Counted from the first letter of the stretch, positions 8,093 through 28,569 are shown. The stretch is DNA of 45,763 nucleotides from an uncultured Bdellovibrionales bacterium (GCA_964537075.1 CAZIBB010000002.1:1-45763), one strand, 5' to 3'. Program-made: numbers and translations. Notes: a model not told the origin generated them from the sequence alone.

Positions 8093-8564
8093 ACAGCGAA
8101 CAACGAACATCAAGAAAAACAATTGATACAAAATATAGGCAAAAGACAGATATCTTGAAAGAAAAAATGGACGAACTGGCTTATTCCATTTACAAGGAAA
8201 CCAAAAACTTCCCAAAAGATGAGATGCATGGAATCACTTCACAAATTCGCCGATCAGCACTTTCTATTGTTTTGAATTACATTGAAGGTTACGCGCGAAC
8301 AGGATCAAAAGAGTATAAGAATTTTTTACAGATTTCGTACGGGTCTCTGAAAGAAACAAACTACCTTCTATTTTTCTCAACAAGAGAGGGTTATATTTCA
8401 AAAGAAAGTTACGAAAAATTAACAAAGATTTCTGATGAAATCGGTGCTATGTTTTGGACTACACTTCAGAAAATTAAAACTCGTATCAACGGTTGATTGT
8501 TCCTTATTCACTGCTCCTCGTTCATTGTTCATTGTTCCCTACTCCTTGTTCCCTGTTCACTGTC
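8073..8564 (+). mobile_element. IVS-like cassette 1: GAACA-word arm (8073-8113), 4HB ORF, TGTTC-word arm (8497-8564)
   Basis: Left arm: cagtgagcaatgaacaatagacagcgaacaacgaacatc. Right arm: ttgttccttattcactgctcctcgttcattgttcattgttccctactccttgttccctgttcactgtc. The two are imperfect reverse complements built from the same words. The arms are homologous to those of cassette 2. Confidence 0.4.
8122..8496 (+). CDS. four-helix-bundle protein (23S rRNA intervening-sequence protein / DGR Avd-like family)
   Basis: The sequence MDELAYSIYKETKNFPKDEMHGITSQIRRSALSIVLNYIEGYARTGSKEYKNFLQISYGSLKETNYLL is typical of the family. The track ORF starts at TTG 8155. The frame is open from 8086 and is colinear with the paralog back to 8122, where ATT replaces the paralog's ATG. 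The true start is uncertain: ATT 8122, TTG 8155 or ATG 8167. Confidence 0.8.
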   Translation: MDTKYRQKTDILKEKMDELAYSIYKETKNFPKDEMHGITSQIRRSALSIVLNYIEGYARTGSKEYKNFLQISYGSLKETNYLLFFSTREGYISKESYEKLTKISDEIGAMFWTTLQKIKTRING

Positions 8565-11504: not shown

Positions 11505-11664
11505 AAAACACAGAAATCAAAACACAAAATACCAGACAAAGCACAACTTCCAAAACACAAAACATAAACGACTAAGGTTTTAGGTTTTATGTTTTGAGTT
11601 TTTTGCCTGCCTGCCGGTAGGCAGGGTTCTTGTTCCGCTAGCTGGCGGATTGAGATTTGTGTTT
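11505..11664. repeat. CACAAAA-word hairpin element, copy 1 (fills the whole spacer)
   Basis: The A/C-rich arm aaaacacagaaatcaaaacacaaaataccagacaaagcacaacttccaaaacacaaaacataaac starts immediately after ATG 11504. G/T-rich partners are ggttttaggttttatgttttgag and gagatttgtgttttt. It also contains the GC hairpin cctgcc-ggta-ggcagg and the motif CCGCTAGCTGGCGGAT. Confidence 0.7.
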
Positions 11665-12741
11665 TTACTCTATTAACAATTTCTCTATCTCTTTCGCGCA
11701 TCGAATCCAACTGAAACGACTCACATTGTGGGTCGCTCTTTTTATTATATCACCTCTCCATTCCTCATCAGAAAGCACCTTTTGAATCCCCTCTGCGATA
11801 TCTTCCGGACTCAAGGGATTCACAGTCACGACGCCTTCCCCACCCACCTCAGGAAGCGAGGAGATATCCGACGTAATGACCGGTACTCTGGATGATTGAG
11901 CTTCCAATACCGGTATCCCAAACCCTTCGTACAGGCTCGGAAAGATGAAAACATCCGCACCACGAAGCAATGCCCACTTTTCCTCTTCACTCACATACCC
12001 AAGCTCCACGACTTCATCGCGATATTTGATATTTGATATTTGATATTTGATTCTTCCATAACCATATCCCGGCTTTCCCGCCAATATCAGCTGATGCGGT
12101 ATCCGATGCTGCTCCTTCAGTATCTCAAAGGCTTCGATAATCCGAACGACATTTTTCCGTTCTTCCAACCTCCCAATGAATAAAAGGTATGGTTTTTCTT
12201 GTTTCTTTGTTGGCTGTTCATTGCTCACTGTTGACTGATCCTCATATCCCTCATATACCACTTGTATCTTCGACTCAGGAACACCATAGAGCTTCATTAG
12301 ATCGGACTTCGTATTCTCCGACACCGCAATCAGCGTGCTCGCCGCTCGACATGAGAATCGGATCGAGAGCCTCATATACCATCGCTCCAGAAACGAATAT
12401 GCCTTGGGACAGAATTCATATTCGAGACCATGTATGGTGACGATCGTTTTCTTCGGATGGATGAGCGGTGCCGTATGCGCCGGTATGAACAGGGCATCGA
12501 CTGGAAAAAACAACATTTCCAGGGAAAGTCGCACCTGTGTCCAGAGTCTCGGTGCGCAAAGTTCCTTCACCGTCCAATTATGAGGAAGTTCGAATGGCAC
12601 CTGCTGTCCCGAGCGGACATACAAAAAAACCGGCTCCTGGAGGAGCGTTTCACGGAGATGCCTGATCACCTGATACGAATATTCCTCAATTCCCGTCCGC
12701 TCCGGAAGAAATGCCCGCGATCCATCGATACCGATAATCAT
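11665..12741 (-). CDS. glycosyltransferase family 4 (GT-B, group 1)
   Basis: YEGFGIPVLEAQSSRVPVITSDISSLPEVGGEGVVTVNP. The likely start is MIIGIDGS at 12741 (the track ORF extends to 12762). Confidence 0.85.
   Translation of the reverse strand: MIIGIDGSRAFLPERTGIEEYSYQVIRHLRETLLQEPVFLYVRSGQQVPFELPHNWTVKELCAPRLWTQVRLSLEMLFFPVDALFIPAHTAPLIHPKKTIVTIHGLEYEFCPKAYSFLERWYMRLSIRFSCRAASTLIAVSENTKSDLMKLYGVPESKIQVVYEGYEDQSTVSNEQPTKKQEKPYLLFIGRLEERKNVVRIIEAFEILKEQHRIPHQLILAGKPGYGYGRIKYQISNIKYRDEVVELGYVSEEEKWALLRGADVFIFPSLYEGFGIPVLEAQSSRVPVITSDISSLPEVGGEGVVTVNPLSPEDIAEGIQKVLSDEEWRGDIIKRATHNVSRFSWIRCAKEIEKLLIE
12021..12052 (-). repeat. heptanucleotide tandem repeat (plus-strand GATATTT x4.5; coding strand AAATATC) inside the GT4 coding sequence
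   Basis: The plus strand reads gatattt gatattt gatattt gatattt gatt. It encodes IKYQISNIKY. The unit length is not a multiple of 3. Confidence 0.95.
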
Positions 12742-13213
12742 AGAACAGTGAACAATGACCAATGAACAGGGAACAATAAACCATCAGCCATCAATATGCT
12801 TTTTAATTTTCTGAAGTGTTGTCCAGAGCATGGCTCCAATCTCATCAGAAAGTCTCTCAATTTTTTCATAAGATTCTTATGATAAATATCCTTCCCTCAT
12901 CGAAAAAAACAAGAGATAATTTGTTTCCTTGAGAGATCCATATGAAATTTGCAAAAAATTCTTATACTCCCTTGACCCAGTTCTCGCATACCCTTCAATG
13001 TAATTCAAAATAATCGATAGCCCGGCTCGACGAAGTTGTGATGTAATTCCATATATCTCATCTCTCGGAAAATTCTTCGTTTCTTGGTAAATACAATGAG
13101 CAAGTTCGTCCATCTTTTGTTTCAAAATATCTGTTTTCTGCTTATATCCTTCATCCATTGTTTTTTCCTCATTGTTCCCTGTTCTCTGCTTCTTGCTCCC
13201 TGTTCACTGTTCC
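12742..13213 (-). mobile_element. IVS-like cassette 2: GAACA-word arm (12742-12782), 4HB ORF (reverse), TGTTC-word arm (13170-13213)
   Basis: Left arm: agaacagtgaacaatgaccaatgaacagggaacaataaacc. Right arm: cattgttccctgttctctgcttcttgctccctgttcactgttcc. The arms resemble those of cassette 1: CAGTGArCAATGAmCAAT on the left, and the complement of ACAGTGAACAGGGArCAAG on the right. Confidence 0.4.
12784..13158 (-). pseudogene. four-helix-bundle protein paralog interrupted by an in-frame TAA (codon 94 of 125)
   Basis: The track ORF 12877..13158 ends at TAA (12877-12879), where the paralog has Lys. The same frame continues as ESYEKIERLSDEIGAMLWTTLQKIKKHIDG* to TGA 12784-12786. This is colinear with the C-terminus of the copy at 8122..8496; both are 375 nt. 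Confidence 0.75.
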
Positions 13214-13217
13214 ATGA

Positions 13218-14231
13218 CTACTTCCCCATCATGATACTCCTCTTGTAAATCTCCAGATTCTCCAAGACGAGACCTGTCCCCTTTACCACGCAGAAAGCCG
13301 GCTCATCCGCCAAGTAGCATGGAACACCGATCGTTTTTGCGATGAGCTGATCGAGGTACCGGAGTTGTGAGGTTCCTCCCGAGAGAATCATACCCTTATC
13401 CATGACATCCGCCGCGAGTTCCGGCGGGGTTTCCTGCAGAACTTGCTTGATGACATTGATAATCTCCCGCAGTTCATCTTGTATCGCTTCAGTCACCTCA
13501 TTCGAAGAGATAGTAATCGTCTTTGGCAGCCCCCCCATGAGATCCCGTCCGCGAATATCCATATGGTCTTCCTTGACCTGCACGATAGCCGAGCCGATGG
13601 TGATCTTCACCTCCTCCGCAGTACGATCACCGATCGCCAGACTATATTTTCGCTTGATATAATCCGAAATGGCCTGATCGATACGATTGCCTCCGACGCG
13701 CGCCGAAGCCGAGGCCACGACGCCACCGAGAGAGATAATGGCGATTTCTGATGTCCCTCCACCGATATTGATAATCATGTTTCCCTGCGCCGCATGGATG
13801 GGAATACCTGCGCCGATAGCTGCGAGGATCGGCTCTTTCACGACATATGCCGTTTTCGCCCCGGCTTTGAGCGCGGCATCAATCACCGCGCGCCTCTCAG
13901 TCGAGGTGACGCCGGCAGGAATCGAGAGCACTATCTCGGGACGGAAAAAACGGAACTTCCCACTGACCTTGCCGATAAAATATCGGAGCATCGCTTCAGT
14001 CACCTTATAGTCAGCGATCGCCCCATCACGAAGCGGCTGAGATGCGATGATACTATCCGGCGTCCGTCCGAGCATTTCCTTCGCCTCATTCCCGACCGCC
14101 AACACCTTGTTTTCAAACAGTGAAATGGCTACTACCGACGGTTCATTGACGACAATACCCTTGCCCGGAACGAAAACAAGCGTGTTCGCCGTACCGAGAT
14201 CGATGCCAATTTTTCGTACAAATAAAGCCAT
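13218..14231 (-). CDS. mreB: rod shape-determining protein MreB
   Basis: IGIDLGTANTLVFVPGKGIVVNEPSVVAI and actin-fold motifs throughout. The likely start is MALFVRKIGIDLG at 14231 (the track ORF extends to 14249). Confidence 0.9.
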   Translation of the reverse strand: MALFVRKIGIDLGTANTLVFVPGKGIVVNEPSVVAISLFENKVLAVGNEAKEMLGRTPDSIIASQPLRDGAIADYKVTEAMLRYFIGKVSGKFRFFRPEIVLSIPAGVTSTERRAVIDAALKAGAKTAYVVKEPILAAIGAGIPIHAAQGNMIINIGGGTSEIAIISLGGVVASASARVGGNRIDQAISDYIKRKYSLAIGDRTAEEVKITIGSAIVQVKEDHMDIRGRDLMGGLPKTITISSNEVTEAIQDELREIINVIKQVLQETPPELAADVMDKGMILSGGTSQLRYLDQLIAKTIGVPCYLADEPAFCVVKGTGLVLENLEIYKRSIMMGK

Positions 14232-14341
14232 ACATTTAGTAAAACACAATAATCAAATCACAAAGACCAAACAAAACACAATTTTCAAAACACTCACACT
14301 CAAACTTTTACATCCTTTTGTGTTTTTTACTTTGTGCTTTT
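14232..14341. repeat. CACAAAA-word hairpin element, copy 2
   Basis: aaaacacaataatcaaatcacaaagaccaaacaaaacacaattttcaaaacactcac is followed by a shorter G/T arm, ttttgtgttttttactttgtgctttt, which reaches the murA stop. Confidence 0.6.
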
Positions 14342-15602
14342 ACTTCTCCACCCTCCTGATATCCGCTCCGAGCTTTTTCAATCGCTCTTCGATACGCTCA
14401 TAGCCACGATCTACCTGATAAATATCCTCGATAATTGTCTTTCCCTCCGCGCACAAGGCCGCGATGATGAGTGCCGCCCCAGCACGAAGATCAAAACTTT
14501 TGATCGTCGTTCCATGAAGCGTCACCGGTCCGCGGAAAAGTACCTGATGCGGATTGAGTATGGTCGCACATCCTCTCATTTTCTCCAACTCCGATACATA
14601 GTTGAAACGGCCTTCGAAAATCGTATCAAAGATAAGGGTCTCGCCTTCGGCCTGTGTCGCGAGCACTCCGAATGGCGCCTGTACATCAGTTGGAATGCCC
14701 GGATAGGTTCGTGCATCAAGCTTCGCCACCGCCAGAAGCTTCTCCGCAGGATGAATAGTGATCGAATTCTCCCGGACAGTAAACGAAACGCCAAATTCCC
14801 GCATTCTTTCAAGGACGAGATCGAGGTGTTCTTCTCGAGCATGGTTGACCGTAATCTCGCTTCCCGTCGCTGCGCCGAGAATAAGGAATGTCGCTGCTTC
14901 ATTATGGTCCGGGATGATCTCATATTCGACACCCTGGAGATTCGCGCATCCCTCAATGGTAATCGTATGCGTTCCGAGTCCATCGATCTTCGCGCCCATT
15001 TTCCGCAGGAATTTTCCGAGATCCTCGACATGCGGCTCGGCCGCGGCGATCTTGATCGTCGTCTTTCCGGGAAGCGATGAGGCGAGTGTCATGGCGATCT
15101 CCGTCGCGGTGACGGAAAATTCCCGGAGCACCACGGTGGCTGGAGCGCGTTTCGACGCGTCGATCTCATATCCTTTTTCTATGCCAGTCACGGAAACGCC
15201 AAGTTTCGAGAGCGCCTTCATATGCGTCTCGACGGGTCGGGCGCCGATCACGCACCCTCCGGGATGATACAGTTTAAATTTTTCAAAGCGAGCGGAGAGC
15301 GGTCCGAGCAAGAGTATGGAGGATCGTATCTTTTTCACCAGATCGATATTCATGCGGGATGGATCGATATCCTTCGCCGTGATCGCGACGGTATGCGTAT
15401 CGCGCCATTCCACGAGCGCTCCCATGCTCTCGAGAATTTCCAGCATCCGGAAAACATCCTCGATACGGGGAATATTTTTCAAGACACAGGTCTCCCTGGA
15501 GAGAAGCGTTGCGGCGATGATCGGCGTCGCGGCATTTTTCAGGCCGGAAATCTCGATTTCGCCCGACAGCTTTTTCCCTCCCGTAATTTCGAATACCTCC
15601 AT
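14340..15602 (-). CDS. murA: UDP-N-acetylglucosamine 1-carboxyvinyltransferase
   Basis: Full-length 420 aa; N-terminus MEVFEITGGKKLSGEIEISGLKNAATPIIAATLL; EPSP-synthase-fold repeats. Confidence 0.95.
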   Translation of the reverse strand: MEVFEITGGKKLSGEIEISGLKNAATPIIAATLLSRETCVLKNIPRIEDVFRMLEILESMGALVEWRDTHTVAITAKDIDPSRMNIDLVKKIRSSILLLGPLSARFEKFKLYHPGGCVIGARPVETHMKALSKLGVSVTGIEKGYEIDASKRAPATVVLREFSVTATEIAMTLASSLPGKTTIKIAAAEPHVEDLGKFLRKMGAKIDGLGTHTITIEGCANLQGVEYEIIPDHNEAATFLILGAATGSEITVNHAREEHLDLVLERMREFGVSFTVRENSITIHPAEKLLAVAKLDARTYPGIPTDVQAPFGVLATQAEGETLIFDTIFEGRFNYVSELEKMRGCATILNPHQVLFRGPVTLHGTTIKSFDLRAGAALIIAALCAEGKTIIEDIYQVDRGYERIEERLKKLGADIRRVEK

Positions 15603-15634
15603 ATGAAAAAAAATAATTCATCACAATATCATCC

Positions 15635-15663
15635 ATTGTAGCTCAAAAAGCGCTTCATTTCAA
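15635..15663 (-). promoter_or_regulatory. candidate sigma70-type promoter for murA (TTGAAA-17-TACAAT)
   Basis: On the minus strand, the -35 TTGAAA is at 15658-15663 and the -10 TACAAT is at 15635-15640, with an exact 17-nt spacer. It lies about 33 nt upstream of ATG 15602. Confidence 0.5.
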
Positions 15664-15820
15664 GAGGGAAAATGGCTCTTTGACAGGCTCAAGTATCAAA
15701 CAAGAGAGACTCCTTTCAGGAGGGATTCCGCGGAAGGAACCACCTCCCCACAAAGTAAGTCCGCGGTATAAGGTAAAAGATCGGGTCATGCGTTTCCGTG
15801 ACGAAAGCGTGAGGAAATGA

Positions 15821-15853
15821 AAAAACCACTCCGATGTATCAGGGTGGTTTTTT
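15821..15853. terminator. bidirectional intrinsic-terminator-like hairpin (AAAAACCACTCC...GGGTGGTTTTTT)
   Basis: Stem ACCAC(t)CC pairs with GG-GTGGT, with A5 on the left and T6 on the right, so either strand gives a stem plus U-tract. It sits in the 458-nt non-coding gap between murA and the CAP-domain gene. Confidence 0.6.
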
Positions 15854-15986
15854 CGTTTGTCTGATATATTTATGAATCAGACCAAAACGAAGAATTTCGC
15901 TTTTCTTGTTTGAGAGATTTTTTATGTCTCTTTGTGTTTGTTTTTGTATTGAGTTTTCAAGGAACTCTTTCGGAATCGAGAGATTC

Positions 15987-16039
15987 CCGCGTGACGTTCT
16001 GATATTTTTTATATATATAAATGTCAGAACGTCGCGCGG
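15987..16039. repeat. 16-bp inverted repeat with an AT-only 21-nt loop, just downstream of the CAP-domain gene stop
   Basis: ccgcgtgacgttctga (15987-16002) pairs with tcagaacgtcgcgcgg (16024-16039). There is one T/G opposition, which would be a G-U pair in plus-strand RNA. Confidence 0.8.
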
Positions 16040-16060
16040 AAACCCATTCCAGAGGAAGGG

Positions 16061-16795
16061 TTACCATTTTCGGAGCCACTTCTCATGCATCGCGAATGAA
16101 AGCACCACGAACAATCCTGATGCCTGCACGAAAGCGAAGAATATCAGTGCCAGCAAGCGCTTGGTGTCAATCTTCCAATGCGTCGCCGTCGTAGAAAGAA
16201 AATTCGTCACCGCGCCGATCACGCCGCCATTGTTATCGGCCGGCATCGAAGAACCGAGTACCGACGGATATTTTTTCGGGCAATTTACCCTGCTTTTCTG
16301 AGAAAGATCTATTTTCTTTTCATCAATCATCTGCGTCCCAAACATCTGCACGGCAACCGTCGTTTGTCGCCCCTCCCAGTTTATACTACGTATCGCCACA
16401 CCGATTTCCCGATACTTCGGGCTCAGAATATTTTCACAATGCCTCTTGCTCTCCATCCATACCTGCTCTTCGAGAACCGCATCACGAAAATGAATGGCGA
16501 GATTCTCCCCTGCATAGCGATATTCATATTCTGATTGACGAAACCAATCCCAGGGAGTAATTCCCTTCGGTGAAGTATGCGAAAAATATTGTTCGGTCGC
16601 CATATCGCCGGCCTTGCCCTCGGCTGCCCGATCCAGTACCGAACTGCGAATCAGCGGAACCAGTCCTGCCTCGGTACGATCCTGATTCACCAAAGAAACG
16701 ACTTCTTCCGATGTAATCGCGGCGAAAGCCGCATTCCCCTGAGAGAGGAATACCGCGAACGATATGATGGCGAGAAGAGAGATATTTTTGTTCAT
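16061..16795 (-). CDS. secreted/anchored CAP (SCP/PR-1, YkwD-like) domain protein
   Basis: The signal peptide begins at MNKNISLLAIISFAVFLSQGNAAFA (ATG 16795). The CAP motifs are NQDRTEAGLVPL, AEGKAGDMATEQYFSHTSPKG, YAGENLA and WMESKRHCENIL. There is a C-terminal hydrophobic anchor. Confidence 0.75.
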   Translation of the reverse strand: MNKNISLLAIISFAVFLSQGNAAFAAITSEEVVSLVNQDRTEAGLVPLIRSSVLDRAAEGKAGDMATEQYFSHTSPKGITPWDWFRQSEYEYRYAGENLAIHFRDAVLEEQVWMESKRHCENILSPKYREIGVAIRSINWEGRQTTVAVQMFGTQMIDEKKIDLSQKSRVNCPKKYPSVLGSSMPADNNGGVIGAVTNFLSTTATHWKIDTKRLLALIFFAFVQASGLFVVLSFAMHEKWLRKW

Positions 16796-16810
16796 AATGC
16801 CGGATAATAA

Positions 16811-16841
16811 GCTTTTACAAAAGAAAAAACGGGTCCCATTG
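16811..16841 (-). terminator. intrinsic-terminator-like hairpin plus U-tract in the leader of the CAP-domain gene
   Basis: The minus strand reads aacgggtgcccaatgggacccgtt followed by ttttttctttt. The stem pairs 16818-16827 with 16832-16841. It lies about 20 nt upstream of ATG 16795. Confidence 0.55.
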
Positions 16842-16858
16842 GGCACCCGTTCCTTCAT

Positions 16859-16887
16859 TGATATACCCATTATAGCATGGAAAACCC
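16859..16887 (-). promoter_or_regulatory. near-consensus promoter TTTACA-17-(TGc)TATAAT
   Basis: On the minus strand, the -35 TTTACA is at 16882-16887 and the -10 TATAAT is at 16859-16864, preceded by TGC, with a 17-nt spacer. It points toward the terminator-like hairpin and the CAP-domain gene. Confidence 0.55.
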
Positions 16888-17014
16888 CTCTTGTAAAGAT
16901 AATACTTCCTAGGTTCAACAAGTAAGTGCAACACGAACGAATTAAACACTTCCAAAGGAGTCAGCCAACCCAGTCTCTTCCTTGGCAAAGTATATCATGG
17001 GCTGTTCGGGAAAT

Positions 17015-17935
17015 TTACGATCCCTTTCTGATATAATCATAGGCCGAGAGAGCAGCCACGACACCATCACCAGCAGAAATATTATTCTGCTTGTATGGAG
17101 CGTCCGTGGCATCACCGGTAGCAAAAATTCCAGGTCTTGATGTGCCTTTCGTTTTATGATCAATCATAATTTCTCCACGTTCATTCAGCTCGATAAATCC
17201 TTTGACAAATTCCGTGTTCGGTACCATGCCGATTTCCACGAACACACCATCCGTCGGAAAATCAATCACTTTGTCATGCGCCTTATCAAGATATCGCAGC
17301 CCCTCCAATTTCGTTTCACCGAGCACTTCCTGTGCCAGGGCGTTATAAATCACCTTCACTTTCTCCGAAGCGAGAACTTTTTTCTGCGTAACGGCGTCAC
17401 CCTTCAGTACATCTGCGCGCACCATCAAAGCGATCTCCGTCGCATAGGGAAGCAAATCCTCCACCGCTTCAAGTCCGGAATTTCCGCCGCCGACAACGAC
17501 GACCTTCCTGTTACGGAAGAACGGTGCATCACAGGTCGAGCAGAACACCACTCCTTTGCCGATAAACTTTTCCTCACCTGGAATATCGAGATGCCGATGG
17601 CGTCCACCAGTGGCGAGAATGATCGACTTCGTTTCATACGAAAGCCCATTTGTCGCCGTCACCGTATAATGACCACCCTGTTCAGTGATGCCCGAGGCCC
17701 TGATGCCGACAACGATTTCAATCCCCTCCTGAGCACGCAGATGCTTCTCGAGAGATTGGGCGAATTCCCAGCCAGGCAAGGAAACTGTACCGACCCAATT
17801 TTCAATGCTCGCCGAAACGATCGATTGTCCGCCGAAACTCTCCGTAAGAAAAAGCGTCTTCATCTGCTTGCGTGTCGTATAAATTCCCGCTGCAATTCCT
17901 CCTGGCCCGCCGCCAATCACTATAACATCATACAT
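17015..17935 (-). CDS. trxB: thioredoxin-disulfide reductase
   Basis: VIVIGGGPGGIAAG (FAD), redox motif CSTCD, VVVVGGGNSGLEA (NADPH); 306 aa. Confidence 0.9.
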   Translation of the reverse strand: MYDVIVIGGGPGGIAAGIYTTRKQMKTLFLTESFGGQSIVSASIENWVGTVSLPGWEFAQSLEKHLRAQEGIEIVVGIRASGITEQGGHYTVTATNGLSYETKSIILATGGRHRHLDIPGEEKFIGKGVVFCSTCDAPFFRNRKVVVVGGGNSGLEAVEDLLPYATEIALMVRADVLKGDAVTQKKVLASEKVKVIYNALAQEVLGETKLEGLRYLDKAHDKVIDFPTDGVFVEIGMVPNTEFVKGFIELNERGEIMIDHKTKGTSRPGIFATGDATDAPYKQNNISAGDGVVAALSAYDYIRKGS

Positions 17936-18089
17936 AAGCTAAAAAATACAAATTACAAAACACAAAAACCAAACAAAGTACAGAACTCAGATCTCAAAAC
18001 ATAAACTCTCTCTTGGCAGGTTTACACCCTGTGCTTTGAAAGTTGTGCTTTGTTTGGCCTTTGTGTTTTAAAGATTGTGCTTTAAAAAA
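17936..18089. repeat. CACAAAA-word hairpin element, copy 3
   Basis: 17957-17966 aaaacacaaa pairs with 18060-18069 tttgtgtttt. 17969-17978 ccaaacaaag pairs with 18048-18057 ctttgtttgg. Together they form a 22-nt stem with a 2x2 internal loop. The element fills the whole spacer between the gdh stop and the trxB start. Confidence 0.75.
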
Positions 18090-19325: not shown

Positions 19326-19454
19326 ATGATTACTTCAAAACACAAATTAACAAAACACAAAAATCCAGACAAAACACAAAATCCGAAAACACAAACTCAT
19401 CCAGTCCCCATCCTTGTTTGGTTTTTGTGCTTTAGGCTTTGTGCTTTCAAAAGC
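19326..19454. repeat. CACAAAA-word hairpin element, copy 4
   Basis: caaaacacaaattaacaaaacacaaaaatccagacaaaacacaaaatccgaaaacacaaac is followed by cttgtttggtttttgtgctttaggctttgtgctttc. Confidence 0.7.
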
Positions 19455-19697
19455 CTATTGCATCTTGAATAGGCTTTTGAGATACGCTTCATCAATCTTT
19501 TTTTTGCCATCCCACTTGCAGGCGAAATCATCCTTCAGAAGCTCAACGCCAAGCATCGCCACCGCCTCGCGGATCGCAGAAATCTGTGCGATCACATCGA
19601 GACAATCCTTTTTCTCTTCCACCATACGACGGATGCCTCTCAACTGCCCTTCGATGCGAGCGATGCGAGATAATATCGGCGAACTTGTTTCTGTCAT
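19455..19697 (-). CDS. CsoR/RcnR/FrmR-family (DUF156) metal or persulfide-sensing transcriptional repressor
   Basis: RIARIEGQLRGIRRMVEEKKDCLDVIAQISAIREAVAMLGVELL is the family signature. The likely start is MTETSSP at 19697 (the track ORF extends to 19751). Confidence 0.8.
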   Translation of the reverse strand: MTETSSPILSRIARIEGQLRGIRRMVEEKKDCLDVIAQISAIREAVAMLGVELLKDDFACKWDGKKKIDEAYLKSLFKMQ

Positions 19698-19711
19698 ACT
19701 CCATAAAATTA

Positions 19712-19734
19712 AATATACCCCATAGGGGTATATT
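19712..19734. promoter_or_regulatory. candidate CsoR-type operator: AATATACCCC-ata-GGGGTATATT
   Basis: Perfect 10-bp arms (19712-21 and 19725-34) with a 3-nt spacer. The site is centred about 26 nt upstream of the repressor ATG. Confidence 0.6.
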
Positions 19735-19766
19735 AGAAGAAACCAACACAACTGTCAAACGGAGCG

Positions 19767-21143: not shown

Positions 21144-21210
21144 AAAAAAATATCTCTGATAAGCCTATAACCCGTCAAAGATATCACAAAACAGCCATTT
21201 TTACCATTTT

Positions 21211-22803
21211 TCACCAAGAGAAAAGAGATTGGTTGCGACGCAAGACCCTGCCTGATCGGATACCGGAAGATCGGCCCGAGAGAAGGGTCACCTCGCCATT
21301 GATGACAACTTCATGGATGCCGAGAGGATACTGATATGGATTCTCAATAGTAGCGGTATCAATCACCCGCTCCGGATCAAAAACGACGATATCGGCGAAG
21401 TACCCCTCCTTCAATCGTCCGCGCTTTTCAATATGAAAAACCTGCGCCGGCTTACCGGTCATCTTATGTATCGCTTCCTCCCATGAAAGCAGTTTCTCTT
21501 CCCGTACATACCGTCCTAATACGCGCGGAAATGTTCCGAAACTTCTCGGATGGACCTGCTCCCCGGTCTCCTTGTAATCAATCGAATATCCTGAGCCATT
21601 GGAAGAAATAATAGAAAACGGATGTTGGATGCCATGGCGCATATTGTGATCAGAAATAGCCTCAAGCGAAACGATAGCCCGACCATCGCTCGCCAACAAG
21701 ACATCGATGATAATCTCTTCGGGAGATTTTTTCTGCATGGCGGCGATATCGGCGATATATCGGCGCGGCATCATCTTGCTCAAAGAGGAGGAAAGTACCA
21801 TAAGCGTTGTGTAGTCGAGACCTTCTTTTCTCATTTCTTCGACGACCTTGTTTCGCACCCGCACGTCTCGCAGCTGCCGAAGCATCACTTTCCGACCCCC
21901 CTCCGTCACCCAGTCCGGAAGAAAGGTATAGAGTACCGATCCGGTCGTCGTATAGGGATACACATCGAAGCTGATAGGGAGACCACCGGTCGCCGCCGCT
22001 TCAATACAGTTCAAGGCTCCATCAAAAAGATTCCAATACTTTTTCCCGCTCGCCTTCAGGTGGGAAATATGCAGACCAATCTTCGTTTCCTTCGCGGTAT
22101 GGATAGCCTCTTCGATTGATTCTATCAATTCATCCGATTCGTTCCGCAAATACGTCGAATATACTCCGTCAAAACCAGCGGCCGTTTCTGTCAGATCCAT
22201 AATTTCACTGGCCGTCGCACTCTTCGCATGAGTATAGCGCAACCCGGTGGAAAAACCGATAGCTCCTTCCTTCATCGCCTGTTTCAGAAGATGCTTCATG
22301 TCATCGATATCTTCAGGTTTCACAAGGCGATTGACATCATGCAATACTCCGCGACGGAGTGTCCCATGTCCGACGAGTGTGGCGAAATTCACTGTCATTC
22401 TTCTCTTCTCCAGTTCGGCGAGAAATTCTTTCATCGAAAGCCAATTGAAGGAAATCTTCTCCACATCGGTCCACTTCTGAATGGAACGGATAGTATCATG
22501 CGTCACAAGCGGCGCGAGTGAAGACCCCGCATTCCCGCCGATGATCGTCGTCACTCCCTGCCGGAACATACTCTCTAATTCCGGATTCGAGAGAAGCTGC
22601 CAATAAACATCCGAATGATTGTTCACATCGATAAACCCAGGCGCGACATAGCGCCCGATGGCATCGATCACATTCGGCGCCGCTTCATGGGAAAGGTCAC
22701 CGATGAAAGTGATCTTATCTTCCTTGATGCCGATATCAGCCCGAAACATCGGCTTTCCCGAGCCGTCAATCACTGTCCCATTTTTGATGAGAACGTCGTA
22801 CAT
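21211..22803 (-). CDS. amidohydrolase-superfamily enzyme, N-acyl-D-amino-acid deacylase (D-aminoacylase)-like
   Basis: YDVLIKNGTVIDGSGKPMFRADIGIKEDKITFIGDL plus PGFIDVNNHSD, and the characteristic C-terminal GYFADIVVFDP; 530 aa. Confidence 0.75.
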   Translation of the reverse strand: MYDVLIKNGTVIDGSGKPMFRADIGIKEDKITFIGDLSHEAAPNVIDAIGRYVAPGFIDVNNHSDVYWQLLSNPELESMFRQGVTTIIGGNAGSSLAPLVTHDTIRSIQKWTDVEKISFNWLSMKEFLAELEKRRMTVNFATLVGHGTLRRGVLHDVNRLVKPEDIDDMKHLLKQAMKEGAIGFSTGLRYTHAKSATASEIMDLTETAAGFDGVYSTYLRNESDELIESIEEAIHTAKETKIGLHISHLKASGKKYWNLFDGALNCIEAAATGGLPISFDVYPYTTTGSVLYTFLPDWVTEGGRKVMLRQLRDVRVRNKVVEEMRKEGLDYTTLMVLSSSLSKMMPRRYIADIAAMQKKSPEEIIIDVLLASDGRAIVSLEAISDHNMRHGIQHPFSIISSNGSGYSIDYKETGEQVHPRSFGTFPRVLGRYVREEKLLSWEEAIHKMTGKPAQVFHIEKRGRLKEGYFADIVVFDPERVIDTATIENPYQYPLGIHEVVINGEVTLLSGRSSGIRSGRVLRRNQSLFSW

Positions 22804-22839
22804 ATGATAAGAGATGAGTGGTTAAGAATGAAAAGAATA

Positions 22840-23838
22840 TCAGCGGGATACTATCACTGCCAGTTCAACAAGACGATTGGAATATCCCCATTCATTATCA
22901 TACCATGCGATGACCTTTACCAGATCGCCGTCCACCACCTTGGTGAGAGGGAGGTCGACGATACTCGAATAAGGATTGCCGATGAAATCCGATGAGACAA
23001 GCGATTCTTTGGTCACGGCGAGAACACCCGCGTATTTCGCATCATGTGATGCCTCCTCGAGCACGGCATTCAATTCTTCAACAGTTGTTTTTCTCTTCAA
23101 TACGAAAGTGAAATCCGTCACCGATACCACAATTGTCGGTACTCGAAACGATAATCCGTCGAACATACCGGCAAGCTCCGGGATAACTTTCGTCACCGAT
23201 ATGGCGGCGCCCGTCGTCGTCGGAACGATATTCTGTCCGGCGGCACGAGCACGGCGCAGGTCACGATGAGGGCCATCCTGCAAATTCTGATCCGCCGTGT
23301 ATGAATGTGTCGTGGTCATCAAAGCCTTGGCGATGCCAAATTTTTCGTGAATCACCTGTGCGACCGGTGCGAGACAATTCGTCGTGCAGGATGCATTGGA
23401 AATAATCGGCTCCCCCTGATATTCATCTTCATTTACGCCACGGAGGTAGGTTTTGATTTCTCCTTCATCTTTGGCCGGAGCCGAAAGGATGATCTTCTTC
23501 GCCCCCGCTTCGATATGCCCACCCGCCGATTTTCCGTCGGTGAACCGGCCAGTACATTCGAGTACGACATCGACACCCAAATCCTTCCATGGTAATTTCT
23601 TCGGATCCGATTCACCATAGACGGGATATATCTTCTCATCGATGATCAAAGAATTTCCATCTACCCGTACCGCGCGCTGATACATGCCGTAGGCCGTATC
23701 ATGCTTCAAGAGATGCGCCAATGTCTTCGCATCGGTCAGGTCATTGATCGCCACTATTTCCACATCATTCCGTTCCAAGGCGATTTTCAGTGCTGCCCGC
23801 CCGATTCGCCCGAACCCGTTGATCGCTATGCGTACCAT
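22840..23838 (-). CDS. gap: type I glyceraldehyde-3-phosphate dehydrogenase
   Basis: INGFGRIGR and the active site SNASCTTNCLAP; 332 aa. Confidence 0.95.
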   Translation of the reverse strand: MVRIAINGFGRIGRAALKIALERNDVEIVAINDLTDAKTLAHLLKHDTAYGMYQRAVRVDGNSLIIDEKIYPVYGESDPKKLPWKDLGVDVVLECTGRFTDGKSAGGHIEAGAKKIILSAPAKDEGEIKTYLRGVNEDEYQGEPIISNASCTTNCLAPVAQVIHEKFGIAKALMTTTHSYTADQNLQDGPHRDLRRARAAGQNIVPTTTGAAISVTKVIPELAGMFDGLSFRVPTIVVSVTDFTFVLKRKTTVEELNAVLEEASHDAKYAGVLAVTKESLVSSDFIGNPYSSIVDLPLTKVVDGDLVKVIAWYDNEWGYSNRLVELAVIVSR

Positions 23839-23999
23839 AAGATTTTACTTCTTAAAATAAATTACAAACTCAAAATTACAAATCCCAAACAAACCTCAAC
23901 CTTCAATCTCAAAACCTGATTTTTTATTCTATTCTTTTGGATTTTAATTTTAAATTTTGTATTTTTTTGTTCCATACTCCATGTTCACTGCTCTCTGCC
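23839..23999. repeat. CACAAAA-word hairpin element, copy 5 (diverged, ATTACAAA words), plus a solo TGTTC-word segment
   Basis: aaaataaattacaaactcaaaattacaaatcccaaacaaacctcaaccttcaatctcaaaacc is followed by ttttggattttaattttaaattttgtattttttt and then gttccatactccatgttcactgctctctgcc. Confidence 0.55.
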
Positions 24000-24857
24000 T
24001 CATGCCTTTCCGCCGCTCCCATACATCATGATCTTCTTCTTCACTGCATCCTGTACCGCCGATTTTCCTCCCTCGAGCAATCGGCGAATATCGGTTTCAT
24101 CATGCTCTTCCAGATGTTGCTTCACCGCGCCGATAAAAGCGAGACGGATCGACGTATCCACATTGAAGCAGCTGATTCCCATCCCGATAACTTTCTTCAC
24201 TCGTTCTTCGTTCCAATCCGACGAACCATGCAATACGAGCGGAATGGATACCTGGGAAGCGATGGTCTGCAGGCGATCGTAATCCGGCACTTCCCGCTCC
24301 TTGAAGAAACCATGGGCATTCCCAATGGCGACCGCAAGAGTATCGATGCCCGTCTGCTCTACGAATTCGACTGCCTGCTTTGGATCGGTCATATAATTCT
24401 CCCAATTGATTGAGTCCATATTCACCTCGCCGAGATACGGCACATTCCCCAATTCCGCCTGCACCGAAATCCCGCGAAGATGTGCGAGCTCAACAATCTT
24501 TCTTGTCGTCATGAGATTATCGGTATACTCCTTGCGGGATCCATCATACATGACTGATGGAAAGCCTATTTCCATGGCACGCTCCACGATCTCGAAACTC
24601 TTCCCGTGATCGAGGTGGATACCGACGGGAATTTCAGGCGCATAAAACTCAACCATGCCTTTGATCAATTGAAAGATGGCGCGACCACCGGCATAGTCGA
24701 ATGTCTTTTCCGTCACTTGGATGATGACCGGAGACTTCATCTCTTTCGCCGCGAGAACGATCGCTCTCGTCGTTTCAAGATTCACCGTATTGAAAGCGCC
24801 CACGGCATATCCTTCGGCACGAGCTTTTTCAAGCATCTGTTTCACATCAGCGATCAT
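24000..24857 (-). CDS. fba: class II fructose-bisphosphate aldolase
   Basis: YAVGAFNTVNLE, HLDHG, and the 285-aa TIM-barrel pattern. Confidence 0.9.
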   Translation of the reverse strand: MIADVKQMLEKARAEGYAVGAFNTVNLETTRAIVLAAKEMKSPVIIQVTEKTFDYAGGRAIFQLIKGMVEFYAPEIPVGIHLDHGKSFEIVERAMEIGFPSVMYDGSRKEYTDNLMTTRKIVELAHLRGISVQAELGNVPYLGEVNMDSINWENYMTDPKQAVEFVEQTGIDTLAVAIGNAHGFFKEREVPDYDRLQTIASQVSIPLVLHGSSDWNEERVKKVIGMGISCFNVDTSIRLAFIGAVKQHLEEHDETDIRRLLEGGKSAVQDAVKKKIMMYGSGGKA

Positions 24858-24875
24858 ATTCTTCGTGTCTTTTAT

Positions 24876-25661
24876 TTATTTATCCTCTTCGTCGCTTATC
24901 TCCGATTGAGAAAGAAGCGCCGCCATTTTTGTCATCTCATACGGGAAGAGACTTTCCCGCCCGACGAGTACGCCATCCATCTGTGCATCCAGACACACAC
25001 GAGAGAGGAGCGCCTGTTTCACTGATCCTCCATAGAGGACAGGGATCCGATCGGCCGTCTTCAGATCGAACATTTTCGAGAGCACCTTTCGGATGAGAAT
25101 CTTGACTTCCATGATATCCGCGGTCTCCGGAGTGGCATCGGTACCGATGGCCCACCTGGGCTCATAGGCAATGATTATCTTTTCCGCCTGCATCCGCGAG
25201 AGACCTTCGAAAATCGATTGTATCCCACGCTCGATAATGTCTCCTGTTTTCCCGTTCGCCCGCTCATCCGTGGTCTCGCCGATGCACATGATCGGACGGA
25301 GCATCTGTTTCAGTGCCATGTCCATCTTTCTTCGGACGATTTCATTGGTCTCATTGAAATAGAGTCTCCGTTCGCTATGACCGAGAATCACATATTCCGC
25401 ACCATACTGTTTGAGCATGACGGGAGAAGTTTCCCCGGTATATGAACCATCCTTTTCCCAAAACATATTCTGCCCGCCGAGCCTAATGGGAGCCGGAAAG
25501 TGTTCGAACATCAATCCGAAATGGATGCTCGCCGGACAGAGCACATATTCGACACCCGGAAAGAGATGCCCCTTCGTCTCACGGCCGAGTACCGTCAAAT
25601 ACTGCCTCACGTCATCAGGCGAGAGTAAATTCATTTTCAAATTTCCAATCAGATATTTCAT
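24876..25661 (-). CDS. tpiA: triose-phosphate isomerase
   Basis: GNLKMN, ILGHSERR, AYEPRWAIGT, YGGSV. Confidence 0.9.
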   Translation of the reverse strand: MKYLIGNLKMNLLSPDDVRQYLTVLGRETKGHLFPGVEYVLCPASIHFGLMFEHFPAPIRLGGQNMFWEKDGSYTGETSPVMLKQYGAEYVILGHSERRLYFNETNEIVRRKMDMALKQMLRPIMCIGETTDERANGKTGDIIERGIQSIFEGLSRMQAEKIIIAYEPRWAIGTDATPETADIMEVKILIRKVLSKMFDLKTADRIPVLYGGSVKQALLSRVCLDAQMDGVLVGRESLFPYEMTKMAALLSQSEISDEEDK

Positions 25662-25737
25662 ACCATTAAGACAATTTTAACTTTTTCAATTACGCTCTTC
25701 CTCTTCCAAACAGGTAAGCATCAAACAAGAGGTCCGA

Positions 25738-25797
25738 AATAACCAATAATCAATAACCAAAATTCTTCTTTGGTGATTGGTGATTGGGTATTATTTG
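25738..25797. repeat. spacer hairpin built from AACCAATAATC / GATTGGTGATTGG words
   Basis: aaataaccaataatcaataaccaaaa pairs with tttggtgattggtgattgggtattatttg (imperfect reverse complement, short loop). It is followed by CCGCCGGCTGGCGGAT at 25808-25823. Confidence 0.6.
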
Positions 25798-25853
25798 TAT
25801 CTTGGTCCGCCGGCTGGCGGATTGGTTATTAGAATTTATTTTTCCCAGAAAAA

Positions 25854-26912
25854 TTATAATTGTTCTCGCAGGAATTCCGCCGCCTTCTCCGGCTCTATCG
25901 TCGAAACTTCGATACCGGTTGCCAGCTCGAATCCCGCCCAGGTCGCTGTTTTCGGCAAAATCTCGATATGCCACTGATAATGAGCATAGTCCCGTCCATC
26001 ACAAGGCGCCGTATGGATATAAAAATTAAATGCCGGATCACCTAATCCCTTATGAAGAGCAAACATCGCCTTTTGGAACACTTCCGCCAATGAGAATTTT
26101 TCCGGATCGGTGATACGTTCGAAATACGGACTACCATCTTTCTTGGCGGTCACCCATACTTCGAAAGCTGAGCGCGAAGCAAACGGGCAGAAGGCGATAA
26201 AATCGGCGTTTTCATACACGACCCGCACTTTCTCTTCCCGTTCGCGATCCACCATCACCTGATACACTTTCTTTTTATGACTTCGGTAATAGAGTTCCGC
26301 ACCATTTAATTCCCCCTGAATATATGGGGAGACGACTGGTATCGCCATCAGCTGCGAATGAGGATGCACAATGGATGCTCCTGCTTCCTTCCCATGATTA
26401 TGAAAAATCTGGATATATTTCACGCTCTTCTTCGCCATAAGGTCGAGATACCGGCTCTGGTATGCATCGAACACTTCCGCCACCTGCCATGGTTCAAGGA
26501 GCGCAATCGACTTCTCGGGATCGCGCGTCACGATAAGTTCATGATATCCCACGCCGGACATCGCGAAGTATGGCCCGTCGGAAAGATCCTTCACCGCGCG
26601 ACCGCGGGTAAAGGCCGGATACTTGTTCGGGAAGACGCGCACACTCCAATCCCCGTCAGGCAGGCGATAGATGAGCAGGTCTTTCTCCTGCCCGCTTTGA
26701 TCGGGATCAGCGAAGGGGTCATTCAAGTCGGCATCCTTCACGCGCTTCGCCGCCGAAGCAAACTCATCCGGACGCTTCGCTCGCCCGGTGGCGATCACCA
26801 CCCAATCCCCCGTCACGATATCCTGACGAAGCTCCGACTGATATTCGACTGTTGTATTTTTTTCCTCCTCCACACGCTTTGATTTTTTTGTTATGTTTGA
26901 GATTTTTTGCAA
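25854..26912 (-). CDS. galT: galactose-1-phosphate uridylyltransferase (HIT superfamily, GalT-type)
   Basis: Active-site motif VHPHSQLMAIP and two half-domains; 352 aa. Confidence 0.8.
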   Translation of the reverse strand: MQKISNITKKSKRVEEEKNTTVEYQSELRQDIVTGDWVVIATGRAKRPDEFASAAKRVKDADLNDPFADPDQSGQEKDLLIYRLPDGDWSVRVFPNKYPAFTRGRAVKDLSDGPYFAMSGVGYHELIVTRDPEKSIALLEPWQVAEVFDAYQSRYLDLMAKKSVKYIQIFHNHGKEAGASIVHPHSQLMAIPVVSPYIQGELNGAELYYRSHKKKVYQVMVDREREEKVRVVYENADFIAFCPFASRSAFEVWVTAKKDGSPYFERITDPEKFSLAEVFQKAMFALHKGLGDPAFNFYIHTAPCDGRDYAHYQWHIEILPKTATWAGFELATGIEVSTIEPEKAAEFLREQL

Positions 26913-26921
26913 GACCTTTCC

Positions 26922-27689
26922 CTATTTCTTTTTTCCGGCATTGAGATGATACCTGCCCATCCAGATCCGGAATCGCGTCTTGAACAGATCCACGAACACC
27001 TGTATATATCCGTTCGGTCCGAACAATTTCACCGTCGATCCCTCTTCGTTCAGCCAGCGAACCGGCATCTGCTTCACCGTATAGTTCATGCGTTCCGCGA
27101 GCGTGATGAATTCGAAATCGAAACCGAATCGATCGACGACCATACGGCTCGCCACCGCTTCGGCAGCCTCACCCGTTATCATCTTAAAACCACACTGCGT
27201 ATCCGGATAGCTCCACAGCCCGAGTATGATGCGAATCGCCCAATTACCGGCATCCCCGAGCAGTTCGCGATACTTCGGCTGATGCACAGTGATCTGCGAC
27301 TTCATGTGATCACGCGAACCGATCACGACATCAAAACCATTTTTAAATTCCGGAAAAAATGTGTCAATATGGGTGATGGAAGTGGATCCATCAGCATCGA
27401 GAAATAGACGATACTTCCCTTTTCCCTCGAGCAATCCCTGACGAACAACATATCCCTTGCCATGATTCTCCGAATTCTCGATTACACGGAGATTCGCCAC
27501 CTGATGCGCATAATTGCGCGCGACCTCGGCGGTATTATCAGGCGATCCATCGACAATGACGATAATCTCATAGCTATAGTTCTGCCCTTTCAGATATTTG
27601 TCGATTTCCATCAGATTCCGGCCGATTCGCTCACCCTCCTTATACGCAGGGATGAGAACACTCAGATACGGTTGTTCCATACACGACAA
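26922..27689 (-). CDS. GT2 glycosyltransferase, polyprenyl/dolichyl-phosphate hexosyltransferase-like
   Basis: LSVLIPAYKEGERI, IIVIVDGSPDNT, LFLDADGST (DXD); 255 aa, no TM domain. Confidence 0.8.
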   Translation of the reverse strand: MSCMEQPYLSVLIPAYKEGERIGRNLMEIDKYLKGQNYSYEIIVIVDGSPDNTAEVARNYAHQVANLRVIENSENHGKGYVVRQGLLEGKGKYRLFLDADGSTSITHIDTFFPEFKNGFDVVIGSRDHMKSQITVHQPKYRELLGDAGNWAIRIILGLWSYPDTQCGFKMITGEAAEAVASRMVVDRFGFDFEFITLAERMNYTVKQMPVRWLNEEGSTVKLFGPNGYIQVFVDLFKTRFRIWMGRYHLNAGKKK

Positions 27690-27768
27690 TCAGTGATTAG
27701 TATACTCTACCCCTATTATTGTACCACATATTCATAAAAGCATGGAACGTAAAGCATAGAACACCTAG

Positions 27769-27958
27769 GTATCTATCTCAAATCTCACCGCATGAGATGA
27801 AAAGCAAGAATGTCTCCTGCTTGTCGGCTAAAATTTCATCATTTTGGCTGCAAATCCTAAAAATCTCGTCGGAATATCTCGATATTCCTCCTCACTTTTC
27901 AAAATTTTCGCTCAAACTGATGAAATTTTATCTGCGACATGAGATTTGAGATAGATAC
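27769..27958 (+). repeat. structured roughly 190-nt element A (19-bp terminal inverted repeats, nested hairpins); homolog of element B at 41845-42009
   Basis: The terminal repeats GTATCTATCTCAAATCTCA (27769-27787) and TGAGATTTGAGATAGATAC (27940-27958) are exact reverse complements. An inner stem pairs taaaatttcatca with tgatgaaatttta. There is a hairpin ggaatatc-tc-gatattcc. Sequence blocks are shared with element B in the same order and spacing. Confidence 0.7.
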
Positions 27959-28001
27959 TAAATCAAAAACAGCCTCGACTTCCTCGAGACTGCCCTCCTG
28001 T

Positions 28002-28427
28002 TCATTGCTCCTTGTTCTCTGTTCGCTGACCGCGGTCCATATAGGACTGCAGAATGATCCGGGCGGCCTCGGCATCATCGTGCCGACCGACATGCTTCTC
28101 CCCTCGCTCAATCAAGTTCGCCTGAGCCATCTTGGTCGTGAACATTTCATCCTGATAGGCAGTTGTGACGTGATAGGTTCCTTCCAGGCTCCGACCAAGC
28201 TTTTCCCCCTCATACTCCGTTTCTTTGCGACTAATGTGGCTGGGAATCCCGATCACGACCGTGCCTACCTCCTCACGGGCGATGATCTCTCCTAGCTTCG
28301 CGAGCAGCTCCTCCGTATTATCAATGGTATCGTAGGCGAGCGCCACGCCTGTTTCCGCATGTGCCAAAGCAATCCCCACCTTTGATGAACCCCAATCTAC
28401 CCCAAGAAAGTTTTTTCTTACATCCAT
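28002..28427 (-). CDS. ruvX: Holliday junction resolvase-like / pre-16S rRNA nuclease YqgF
   Basis: FLGVDWGSSKVGIALA, and later DDAEAARIILQSYMD; 141 aa. The C-terminal codons run into a TGTTC-word segment (27985-28030). Confidence 0.85.
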   Translation of the reverse strand: MDVRKNFLGVDWGSSKVGIALAHAETGVALAYDTIDNTEELLAKLGEIIAREEVGTVVIGIPSHISRKETEYEGEKLGRSLEGTYHVTTAYQDEMFTTKMAQANLIERGEKHVGRHDDAEAARIILQSYMDRGQRTENKEQ

Positions 28428-28569
28428 ACACTAAAAAACACAGATATTCAAAAACACAAAAACCAAACAAAGCACAATTTTCAAAACCTAAACGAAGCCG
28501 TTCCCTTTTGTGTTTTATATATCTGTGTTTTGTTTGGTTTTTGTGTTCTGGGCTTTGTGCATTCTCTCG
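28428..28569. repeat. CACAAAA-word hairpin element, copy 6
   Basis: 28453-28470 AACACAAAAACCAAACAA is the exact reverse complement of 28530-28547 TTGTTTGGTTTTTGTGTT. Within 28435-28447, aaaacacagatat matches atatctgtgtttt at about 28520-28532. The element fills the spacer between the map stop and the ruvX start. Confidence 0.8.

Follow-up and report, generated by a model that had tools for sequence, protein, structure and literature searches.

Foldback elements with CACAAAA boxes at gene junctions of a Moraniibacteriota genome, and their link to PF05635 genes

A 45,763-nucleotide stretch of DNA deposited under an uncultured Bdellovibrionales bacterium (GCA_964537075.1, CAZIBB010000002.1:1-45763; the whole stretch is called the window here) raises the question of why six intergenic spacers ahead of unrelated genes should carry one and the same A/C-rich segment followed by a G/T-rich partial reverse complement, as was reported in an earlier note on positions 11505-28569. 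Homologues of gdh assign the lineage of the window to Candidatus Moraniibacteriota, of the candidate phyla radiation (CPR). The elements in these spacers are probably miniature members, lacking an open reading frame (ORF), of a foldback family of Parcubacteria-type CPR bacteria that resembles the intervening sequences (IVSs) of rRNA genes. One repeat family takes up ~0.8 kb of 46 kb, and sister families take up more, which is unexpected in the streamlined, tiny genomes of the CPR.

The repeat in six spacers

The six copies are distributed as follows.

Copy 1: 11504..11664, minus strand, between two GT4 glycosyltransferase genes; G/T-rich arm at 11504-11563, abutting the ATG
Copy 2: 14235..14339, minus strand, murA to mreB; G/T-rich arm at 14235-14293 and a rudimentary 5' arm, AAAGCACAAAG..AACACAAAAGG
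Copy 3: 17936..18089, minus strand, gdh to trxB; complete hairpin with arms at 18029-18089 (A/C-rich, gene sense) and 17940-17999 (G/T-rich)
Copy 4: 19326..19455, minus strand, csoR-like gene to gdh; hairpin with arms at 19414-19455 and 19331-19399 and the loop GGATGGGGACTGGATGAG
Copy 5: 23839..23999, minus strand, fba to gap; diverged, marginal member with TTTGTAA-type boxes
Copy 6: 28428..28569, minus strand, map to ruvX; most complete hairpin, with arms at 28513-28565 and 28433-28493

The repeat is real for five of these copies and marginal for copy 5. A hidden Markov model (HMM) of the arm, built from 131 copies, matches copies 1, 2, 3, 4 and 6 at ~17-37 bits (27.3 bits by nhmmer for copy 1, 33.8 for copy 2, 37.8 and 17.8 for copy 3, 28-30 for copy 6), and no other window spacer of at least 60 nt exceeds 1 bit, with the exception of copy 5 (4.2 bits, E 0.13). 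The homology of six spacers proposed in the earlier note therefore stands for five of them and is marginal for the one that the note had already described as more diverged. The core motif TTGTGYTTTGTYTGGTNTTTGTG, with up to three mismatches allowed, has six matches in the window against 0 expected, and TTGTGTTTT has 14 matches against 0.36 expected, every one within the named spacers.

In gene sense, each spacer leads from the upstream stop codon into an A/C-rich segment (..AAAGCACAA..AACACAAAAACCAAACAAAGCACAA..) and then through a short loop into a G/T-rich segment (GTTTGTGYTTTG..TTGTGYTTTGTTTGG..TTTGTGYTYTG..TGTGYTTT), which is separated from the ATG of the following gene by 0-21 nt. The placement directly after the upstream stop was correctly described before, and the distance to the ATG had been given more narrowly, as 0-15 nt; the true ATG of mreB lies 4 nt downstream of the start implied by the ORF list, by comparison with another genome (L016; loci from other sources are cited by such numbers).

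When folding in gene sense is compared with that of shuffled sequences by minimum free energy (MFE), copies 1, 3, 4 and 6 are significant hairpins (z -4.1, -4.85, -3.8 and -5.0, respectively), and copies 2 and 5 are not (z -0.07 and -1.0). An inverted repeat was detected in copy 3, and copy 4 is a full hairpin except for the innermost box of its 5' arm. The exact pairings quoted for copies 6 and 3 were confirmed: the arms of copy 6 at 28453-28476 and 28524-28547 (24 nt) are 96% complementary, and those of copy 3 at 17943-17982 and 18044-18083 are 78% complementary. A reverse-complement arm had been claimed for every copy; in copies 1 and 2 the start-proximal arm is the only one recognisable. 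Most of the 5' half of copy 1 is replaced by GC-rich mini-hairpins (~11601-11649), with a terminal remnant, AAAACACAAA, left.

The small GC-rich palindromes nested in copy 1 (window 11601-11649) are CCTGCCTACCGGCAGGCAGG and CCGCCAGCTAGCGG. The same palindromes are found within or beside elements of other metagenome-assembled genomes (MAGs), at L072 3532-3543, L038 7944-7957 and L050 5120-5133, and one arm in L093 is interrupted by CCGTCAGCTGACGG.

Arm architecture, PF05635 genes and turnover

One genome per species was scanned with a core pattern of 21-23 nt, which matched at least 109 stretches; ~98 of the matches listed are MAGs of Patescibacteria, so that the search of related genomes suggested in the earlier note recovered the same element in dozens of Parcubacteria-type MAGs. 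Among the matches listed are Moranii-, Taylor-, Kaiser-, Campbell-, Andersen-, Portnoy- and Paceibacteria, members of the 'Parcubacteria group', and some MAGs with other submitter labels; the remainder are chance 22-nt matches in unrelated taxa. On these listed matches the arm profile detects 144 elements with a total of 214 arms, and in all 67 two-armed elements the A/C-rich arm comes first on either strand. Two-armed hairpins measure 112-166 nt (typically ~140 nt) and usually fill the entire spacer from stop to start. Four TGTGYTTTG-type boxes make up each arm of ~55-60 nt and are set around a nearly constant TTTGTTTGG, and the columns TTGTG-Y-TTTGTTTGG-nn-TTTGTG are near-invariant and the linkers variable; this invariance is due in part to the sampling, because the scan pattern picked one arm per locus, and the partner arms and extra arms are free of that bias.

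Two candidate origins or roles of the sequence were rejected on the basis of its distribution. All 27 matches in viral sequences of IMG/VR (L115-L141) belong to an unrelated gut-phage locus or to chance; when a 1-nt gap is allowed, the core pattern fits a single conserved locus in a family of gut-metagenome phage contigs (TTGTGTTTTGTTTGGTTTTGTGATAT) that is unrelated to the CPR element. A DNA-uptake sequence was ruled out, as the core 9-mer is confined to the elements.

In at least seven MAGs (L053, L076, L091, L092, L105, L107 and L110), pairs of arms in the same outward configuration stand 340-440 nt apart and enclose an ORF of ~95-126 codons, where the short form has a loop of 10-35 nt. The ORFs between CACAAAA arms encode members of PF05635, '23S rRNA intervening sequence protein' (66-75 bits, above the curated cut-off), for which the nearest solved structure is 2RLD. 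The layout in L105 is stop codon, 11 nt, A/C-rich arm, ORF from ATG to TGA, G/T-rich arm, and then the downstream gene's ATG. In an independent check, five PF05635 homologues were picked by protein similarity alone from 2,763 database clusters: four of them lie between the same arms and the fifth between inverted arms of a variant sequence, and all five are located between unrelated host genes. Nine other PF05635 genes in the loci, including both of those in the window, lie between inverted arrays of other boxes. Arm type and protein type go together: CACAAAA-flanked proteins match one another at 130-199 bits and match proteins with other arms at no more than 44 bits, save one sister at ~105, and the two PF05635 proteins of the window pair with each other in protein similarity. 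Each of the 21 PF05635 genes points in the same direction as the host gene before it. Membership of the miniature form in a PF05635-linked foldback family is well supported, and all six window copies belong to it, copy 5 only marginally.

Two tandem or clustered arrangements were seen in other genomes. In an Andersenbacteria MAG (L076 1457-2179), a PF05635 gene is preceded by three tandem arms that share one orientation and are spaced by ~100 nt; one opposite arm follows them. In L144, a PrgI/TraC/TraG-like gene cluster (type IV secretion or conjugation) harbours at 2181-3195 both a CACAAAA-armed PF05635 element and an ORF-less hairpin 400 nt beyond it.

The gene-bearing elements of the window have arms of another family.

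Sister element with ORF: 12743..13217, minus strand; PF05635 gene at 12877-13158 (Pfam 83 bits) between inverted GAACA(G/A) heptamer arrays at 12743-12775 and 13173-13212
Second PF05635 element: 8075..8563, plus strand; ORF at ~8166-8496 (tblastn E 1e-49) between inverted GAACA-type arrays at 8077-8109 and 8519-8558

The flanks of the second element form a duplex, and its left array overlaps the stop codon of the upstream gene. GAACA(G/A) heptamer boxes have 18 matches in the window against 0.5 expected; further solo arrays lie at 6005-6030, 27999-28024 and 23982-23993, the last being a GAACA-type box at the upstream end of copy 5. The mreB-GT4 spacer, which holds the ORF-bearing GAACA element in the window, holds an ORF-less 80-nt hairpin of the AACAG type in L111.

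The spacers turn over between relatives, as is seen in four syntenic loci (gdh identities of 89, 85, 84 and 76%). The two closest relatives (89% and 85%) have no CACAAAA-family arm over 21 syntenic kb. The site of copy 1 is empty in L111, L112 and L114, in which the two GT4 genes overlap. The spacer of copy 2 contains a full CACAAAA-family hairpin in L114 and other hairpin families in L111-L113, and in L016 the element lies after mreB, which is preceded by a spacer of only 10 nt. The map-ruvX spacer of copy 6 is 2 nt long in L111 and carries a 144-nt hairpin of a different family in L112, whereas the ruvX site holds a CACAAAA-family element in L064 and L069; the csoR-gdh spacer is 4 nt long in one relative. 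Most of the remaining spacers of the relatives contain other long hairpins made of short boxes (TTCAAAT, ATCAAAA, AACAG, ACGAAT or GAGTTAAC). In L113 the loop type of copy 4 recurs at the orthologous position, and in L064 it is found at a different one, that of ruvX. Presence/absence polymorphism at orthologous sites, a hallmark of miniature inverted-repeat transposable elements (MITEs), is therefore evident.

Competing explanations

In the reading of the elements as miniature members of an IVS-like foldback family, a full-length member is ~480 nt long, with two inverted arms around a gene for a PF05635 protein of ~120 aa (an Avd-like four-helix bundle). Such elements may spread or be exchanged as units into short intergenic gaps and may be transcribed by read-through from the gene before them. 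In RNA, the arms would form a ~50-bp stem that, by analogy with the rRNA IVSs, may be cut by RNase III; if so, the hairpins would define the punctuation of operon transcripts in organisms without initiation led by Shine-Dalgarno (SD) sequences. Binding of each arm by a sequence-specific factor, for which the PF05635 protein is the best candidate, may be the reason why the boxes are maintained. The pairing of many arm families with protein clades suggests specific recognition, and a wider proposal, which is tentative and which we hold to be doubtful, is that PF05635 proteins are sequence-specific partners of box-array foldbacks in general, each clade recognising its own boxes and promoting spread, exchange or RNA processing, with the rRNA IVSs as one landing site of a larger class of mobile hairpins at CPR gene junctions. 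Were it true, a wide class of mobile hairpins would use a protein other than a transposase for both gene-bearing and miniature copies.

Several observations weigh against an IVS-like mobile family. The window contains no PF05635 gene with CACAAAA arms, and none of 141 loci has either of the two universal rRNA motifs (16S and 23S) that were searched for. To our knowledge, PF05635 is not a transposase family, and we know of no mechanism by which it would confer mobility. No two of the 67 hairpins are at least 85% identical over 110 nt, so that no recent copies are seen. There is no target-site duplication, the identity of flanks being the same as in shuffled-partner controls (61 hairpins), although the termini of the elements are somewhat ambiguous because of A/T runs. 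Some copies are kept at orthologous sites across genera, upstream of rsmI (four MAGs) and of ruvX (three), copy 4 being likewise shared with L113, and the boxes are more than 90% conserved whereas the linkers are ~40% identical; conserved boxes, variable linkers and retention across genera together fit purifying selection for a host-level or protein-binding function better than selfish decay. The gene contexts, moreover, come from codon-score gene calls made in this analysis. Given the strong conservation of boxes in old resident copies, a host-level or protein-binding function is a possible role.

One alternative takes up these same facts. Each arm would offer four binding sites to a DNA-binding protein conserved in Parcubacteria (for example a nucleoid-associated, insulator or gene-boundary protein), copies would be kept by selection on the host, and the PF05635 gene would often merely sit inside. 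The boxes are near-invariant over MAGs of ~35-54% GC (the range indicated by the MAG names) and separated by variable linkers, the two arms are conserved independently, without compensatory change, and are strand-symmetric relative to transcription, and the age of the copies and their retention at some orthologous sites would be expected of such a module. The closest relatives, however, lack the family over the 21 syntenic kb and have spacers that are empty or filled with unrelated hairpins; therefore no site needs the CACAAAA family. A scan for sigma-70 promoter consensus found no enrichment in the elements and placed canonical TATAAT promoters elsewhere, and the repeated, tight coupling of the arm family to one PF05635 clade is more than incidental. 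We consider a host binding module unlikely. A reading of the boxes as Bacteroidetes-type promoters was dismissed on inspection.

The second alternative is a cis-acting RNA selected for its hairpin, whether as an intercistronic RNase III site, a bidirectional terminator or attenuator, or an SD-independent leader or coupling device for translation; a processing or terminator signal and a translational leader were also among the roles offered in the earlier note. The stems are long and stable on either strand (mean -42 kcal/mol, z about -4 to -5), the base of the hairpin brings the stop and the next ATG together, and relatives have hairpins of other families in these spacers. Full hairpins are also depleted from convergent spacers: 52 lie in tandem, 7 in divergent and 1 in convergent spacers against a background of 490, 59 and 55, that is, 1 convergent against ~5.5 expected. 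The structure itself shows no sign of being selected. RNAalifold retains 12 invariant pairs with 0 compensatory changes; the consensus stem has 41 pairs, in which 82.4% of cells are paired, whereas shuffling the partner arms between elements gives 82.7 +/- 0.4%; covariation scores 0.096 in the real stems and 0.103 in the shuffled ones, 449 of 500 shuffles equalling or exceeding the real value; and similarity at the variable columns is lower between the two arms of an element (0.39) than with arms from elsewhere in that genome (0.48) or from another genome (0.42).

Nor do the hairpins favour the transcribed strand. Mean MFE is -41.9 kcal/mol in sense and -40.6 in antisense (p 0.13), G-U and A-C oppositions in the sense strand number 127 and 129, with no G-U excess, and solo arms point either way with respect to the genes (21 with the G/T-rich and 19 with the A/C-rich sequence in sense). 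The only polarity found is that of the loop, which has its purine-rich side in gene sense 36:12, a bias that can be explained by an ancestral ORF in sense orientation or by the purine skew of coding strands. The sites are, in addition, sometimes empty in close relatives. A scan for terminator consensus placed no terminator on the arms; its only matches in the named spacers are on the GC-rich mini-hairpin at 11601-11626 in the 5' half of copy 1, on the strand antisense to the genes. Canonical bidirectional hairpins resembling intrinsic terminators (GC-rich stem, A/T tracts) do occur elsewhere in the window, at 6078-6131, 15815-15858 and 30843-30883, so that ordinary terminators exist in this organism alongside the foldback repeats.

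The genome also lacks SD-led starts: GGAG, GAGG, AGGA or AAGG is found within 20 nt of the start in only four of 50 called window genes, which agrees with a report that about half of Parcubacteria have lost the anti-SD motif (PMC9297842). Translation initiation in this genome thus appears, from its start regions, to be SD-independent, which might suit a leader function. The absence of SD sequences had been presented as a mark of the six genes and is instead a genome-wide trait, and an SD-related reading of the elements is ruled out as the window as a whole lacks SD sequences. The two checks that had been proposed for a structured RNA, a search for compensatory substitutions and folding in both orientations, gave the zero count and the non-significant difference reported above. 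The elements are neither a conserved RNA structure nor a translation signal, and a cis-acting RNA is, on this evidence, an unlikely explanation.

Finally, the local origin of low-complexity palindromes through slippage and template switching in AT-rich spacers, with no common ancestor, would account for every family being made of short tandem boxes and for the many different box families in the spacers of related genomes, but it is very improbable, being already contradicted by a ~55-nt arm sequence that is almost unchanged in dozens of MAGs of different candidate phyla, tied to one protein clade and present at motif counts far above the shuffled expectation.

Two further features of the arm pairs were noted. 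At the Y position of boxes B and D in the 67 hairpins, the arms of one element read C/T far above expectation and C/C almost never (odds ratios for C/C of 0.21 in B and 0.04 in D), for which no explanation was found, and G-U and A-C oppositions are split between the strands more evenly than by chance. A polarity based on two arm types, X and Y, was rejected, the combinations being compatible with random pairing.

Known systems and other structured spacers

The closest parallel to a miniature, PF05635-linked foldback is the rRNA IVS, which is bounded by a stem, excised by RNase III and found with or without an ORF for the S23p protein (PF05635); IVSs have long been suspected of mobility, for which the ORF is possibly needed (PMC4990558). 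The S23p protein is a pentamer of four-helix bundles related to Avd of diversity-generating retroelements (DGRs) (PMC10053308), and the rRNA genes of CPR bacteria are reported to contain PF05635 ORFs as well as many short uncharacterised insertions at IVS sites (PMC11270868). IVSs of Leptospira, Coxiella, Salmonella, Campylobacter and CPR bacteria likewise come as ~100-150 nt without an ORF and ~430-750 nt with a PF05635 ORF of ~120 aa, in sense with the host transcript; a long stem of terminal inverted repeats encloses the ORF, as the 55-60-nt arms do here (82% paired over 41 pairs), and both are distributed sporadically, which suggests transfer. The optional ORF is found here in other genomes and in the two sister elements of the window, not in the six copies. 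The window copies differ from IVSs in lying between protein-coding genes rather than in helix 25 or 45 of 23S rRNA, in being multi-copy (5-6 copies in 46 kb), and in having arms that are arrays of repeated boxes conserved across candidate phyla; RNase III excision, known for IVSs, is a prediction for the present elements. The link to PF05635 offers a testable handle on a question of ~30 years' standing, namely the nature and mobility of rRNA IVSs and their S23p ORF.

MITEs such as the Correia/NEMIS elements of Neisseria, and foldbacks in general, are likewise short, non-coding, bounded by inverted repeats, situated at gene junctions, co-transcribed and polymorphic in presence, and Correia stems are cut by RNase III. 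A MITE-like repeat with a preference for gene junctions was the third role proposed in the earlier note and came closest, missing the link to the PF05635 gene. Unlike MITEs, the elements have no target-site duplication, and their arms make up nearly the whole element. A longer form with matching ends exists, and its only gene encodes a PF05635 four-helix-bundle protein, which is not a known transposase.

The ERIC/IRU elements (enterobacterial repetitive intergenic consensus, or intergenic repeat units) of Enterobacteria and Vibrio are ~127-bp imperfect palindromes in transcribed intergenic regions, highly conserved in sequence between genera and varying in position by species. No transposase, target duplication or gene-bearing form is known for them. 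The present elements share with ERIC the palindromes in transcribed spacers, conservation between genera, varying positions and lack of a known transposase or target-site duplication; sequence and host group are unrelated, and ERIC is without box-array arms. Repetitive extragenic palindromes (REPs), which with their REP-associated tyrosine transposases (RAYTs) form the REP/REPIN-RAYT system, are alike in forming inverted doublets and ~100-nt extragenic hairpins maintained over long times with one cognate, repeat-flanked, single-copy gene. The arms here, in contrast, are not short palindromes with a GTAG head, and the protein is PF05635 and not an IS200-like Y1 transposase; no RAYT (IS200-like) gene was seen beside arms in the loci inspected, which fall short of complete genomes. 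PF05635 is homologous to Avd of DGRs, a nucleic-acid-binding pentamer of four-helix bundles (PMC10053308), and matches to bAvd and 2RLD were obtained here; in contrast to DGRs, there is no reverse transcriptase and no template or variable repeat beside the elements. ERIC, Correia, REPIN and MITE elements are functional analogues, and membership in each fails on at least one defining feature.

Rfam gave no match at gathering score, and at E up to 1 only chance microRNA-precursor hairpins on copy 6; the literature searched yielded no description of the sequence, of such intergenic repeat families in CPR bacteria, or of a pairing between arms and protein. The earlier note had likewise recognised no described RNA family or repeat. 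Hairpins of this kind matter in practice, as they can break assemblies, mislead gene callers (through spurious TTG or GTG starts in the arms) and mimic structured RNAs in screens.

Other spacers of the window are also structured. The 312-nt ruvX-GT2 spacer (27690-28001) is very strongly so (MFE -112.9, z -8.0), with nested inverted repeats, and its centre (27778-27959) is 86% identical over 185 nt to L049 2650-2831 in another Moraniibacteriota MAG; it has no match in Rfam and may be an unrecognised non-coding RNA or another repeat. Another conserved hairpin, TTTTTACARCGG...CCGYTGTAAAAA with A/T-tract flanks, resembles a terminator and lies after secY (32660-32725), and it recurs in the gap-amidohydrolase and galT-TIM spacers of relatives (L111 5384-5477; L112 5085-5190 and 7955-8060). 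Long imperfect inverted repeats of unrelated sequence fill further spacers at 41866-41965, 34128-34231 and 29361-29444, and the filling of spacers by hairpins seems to be general in this genome.

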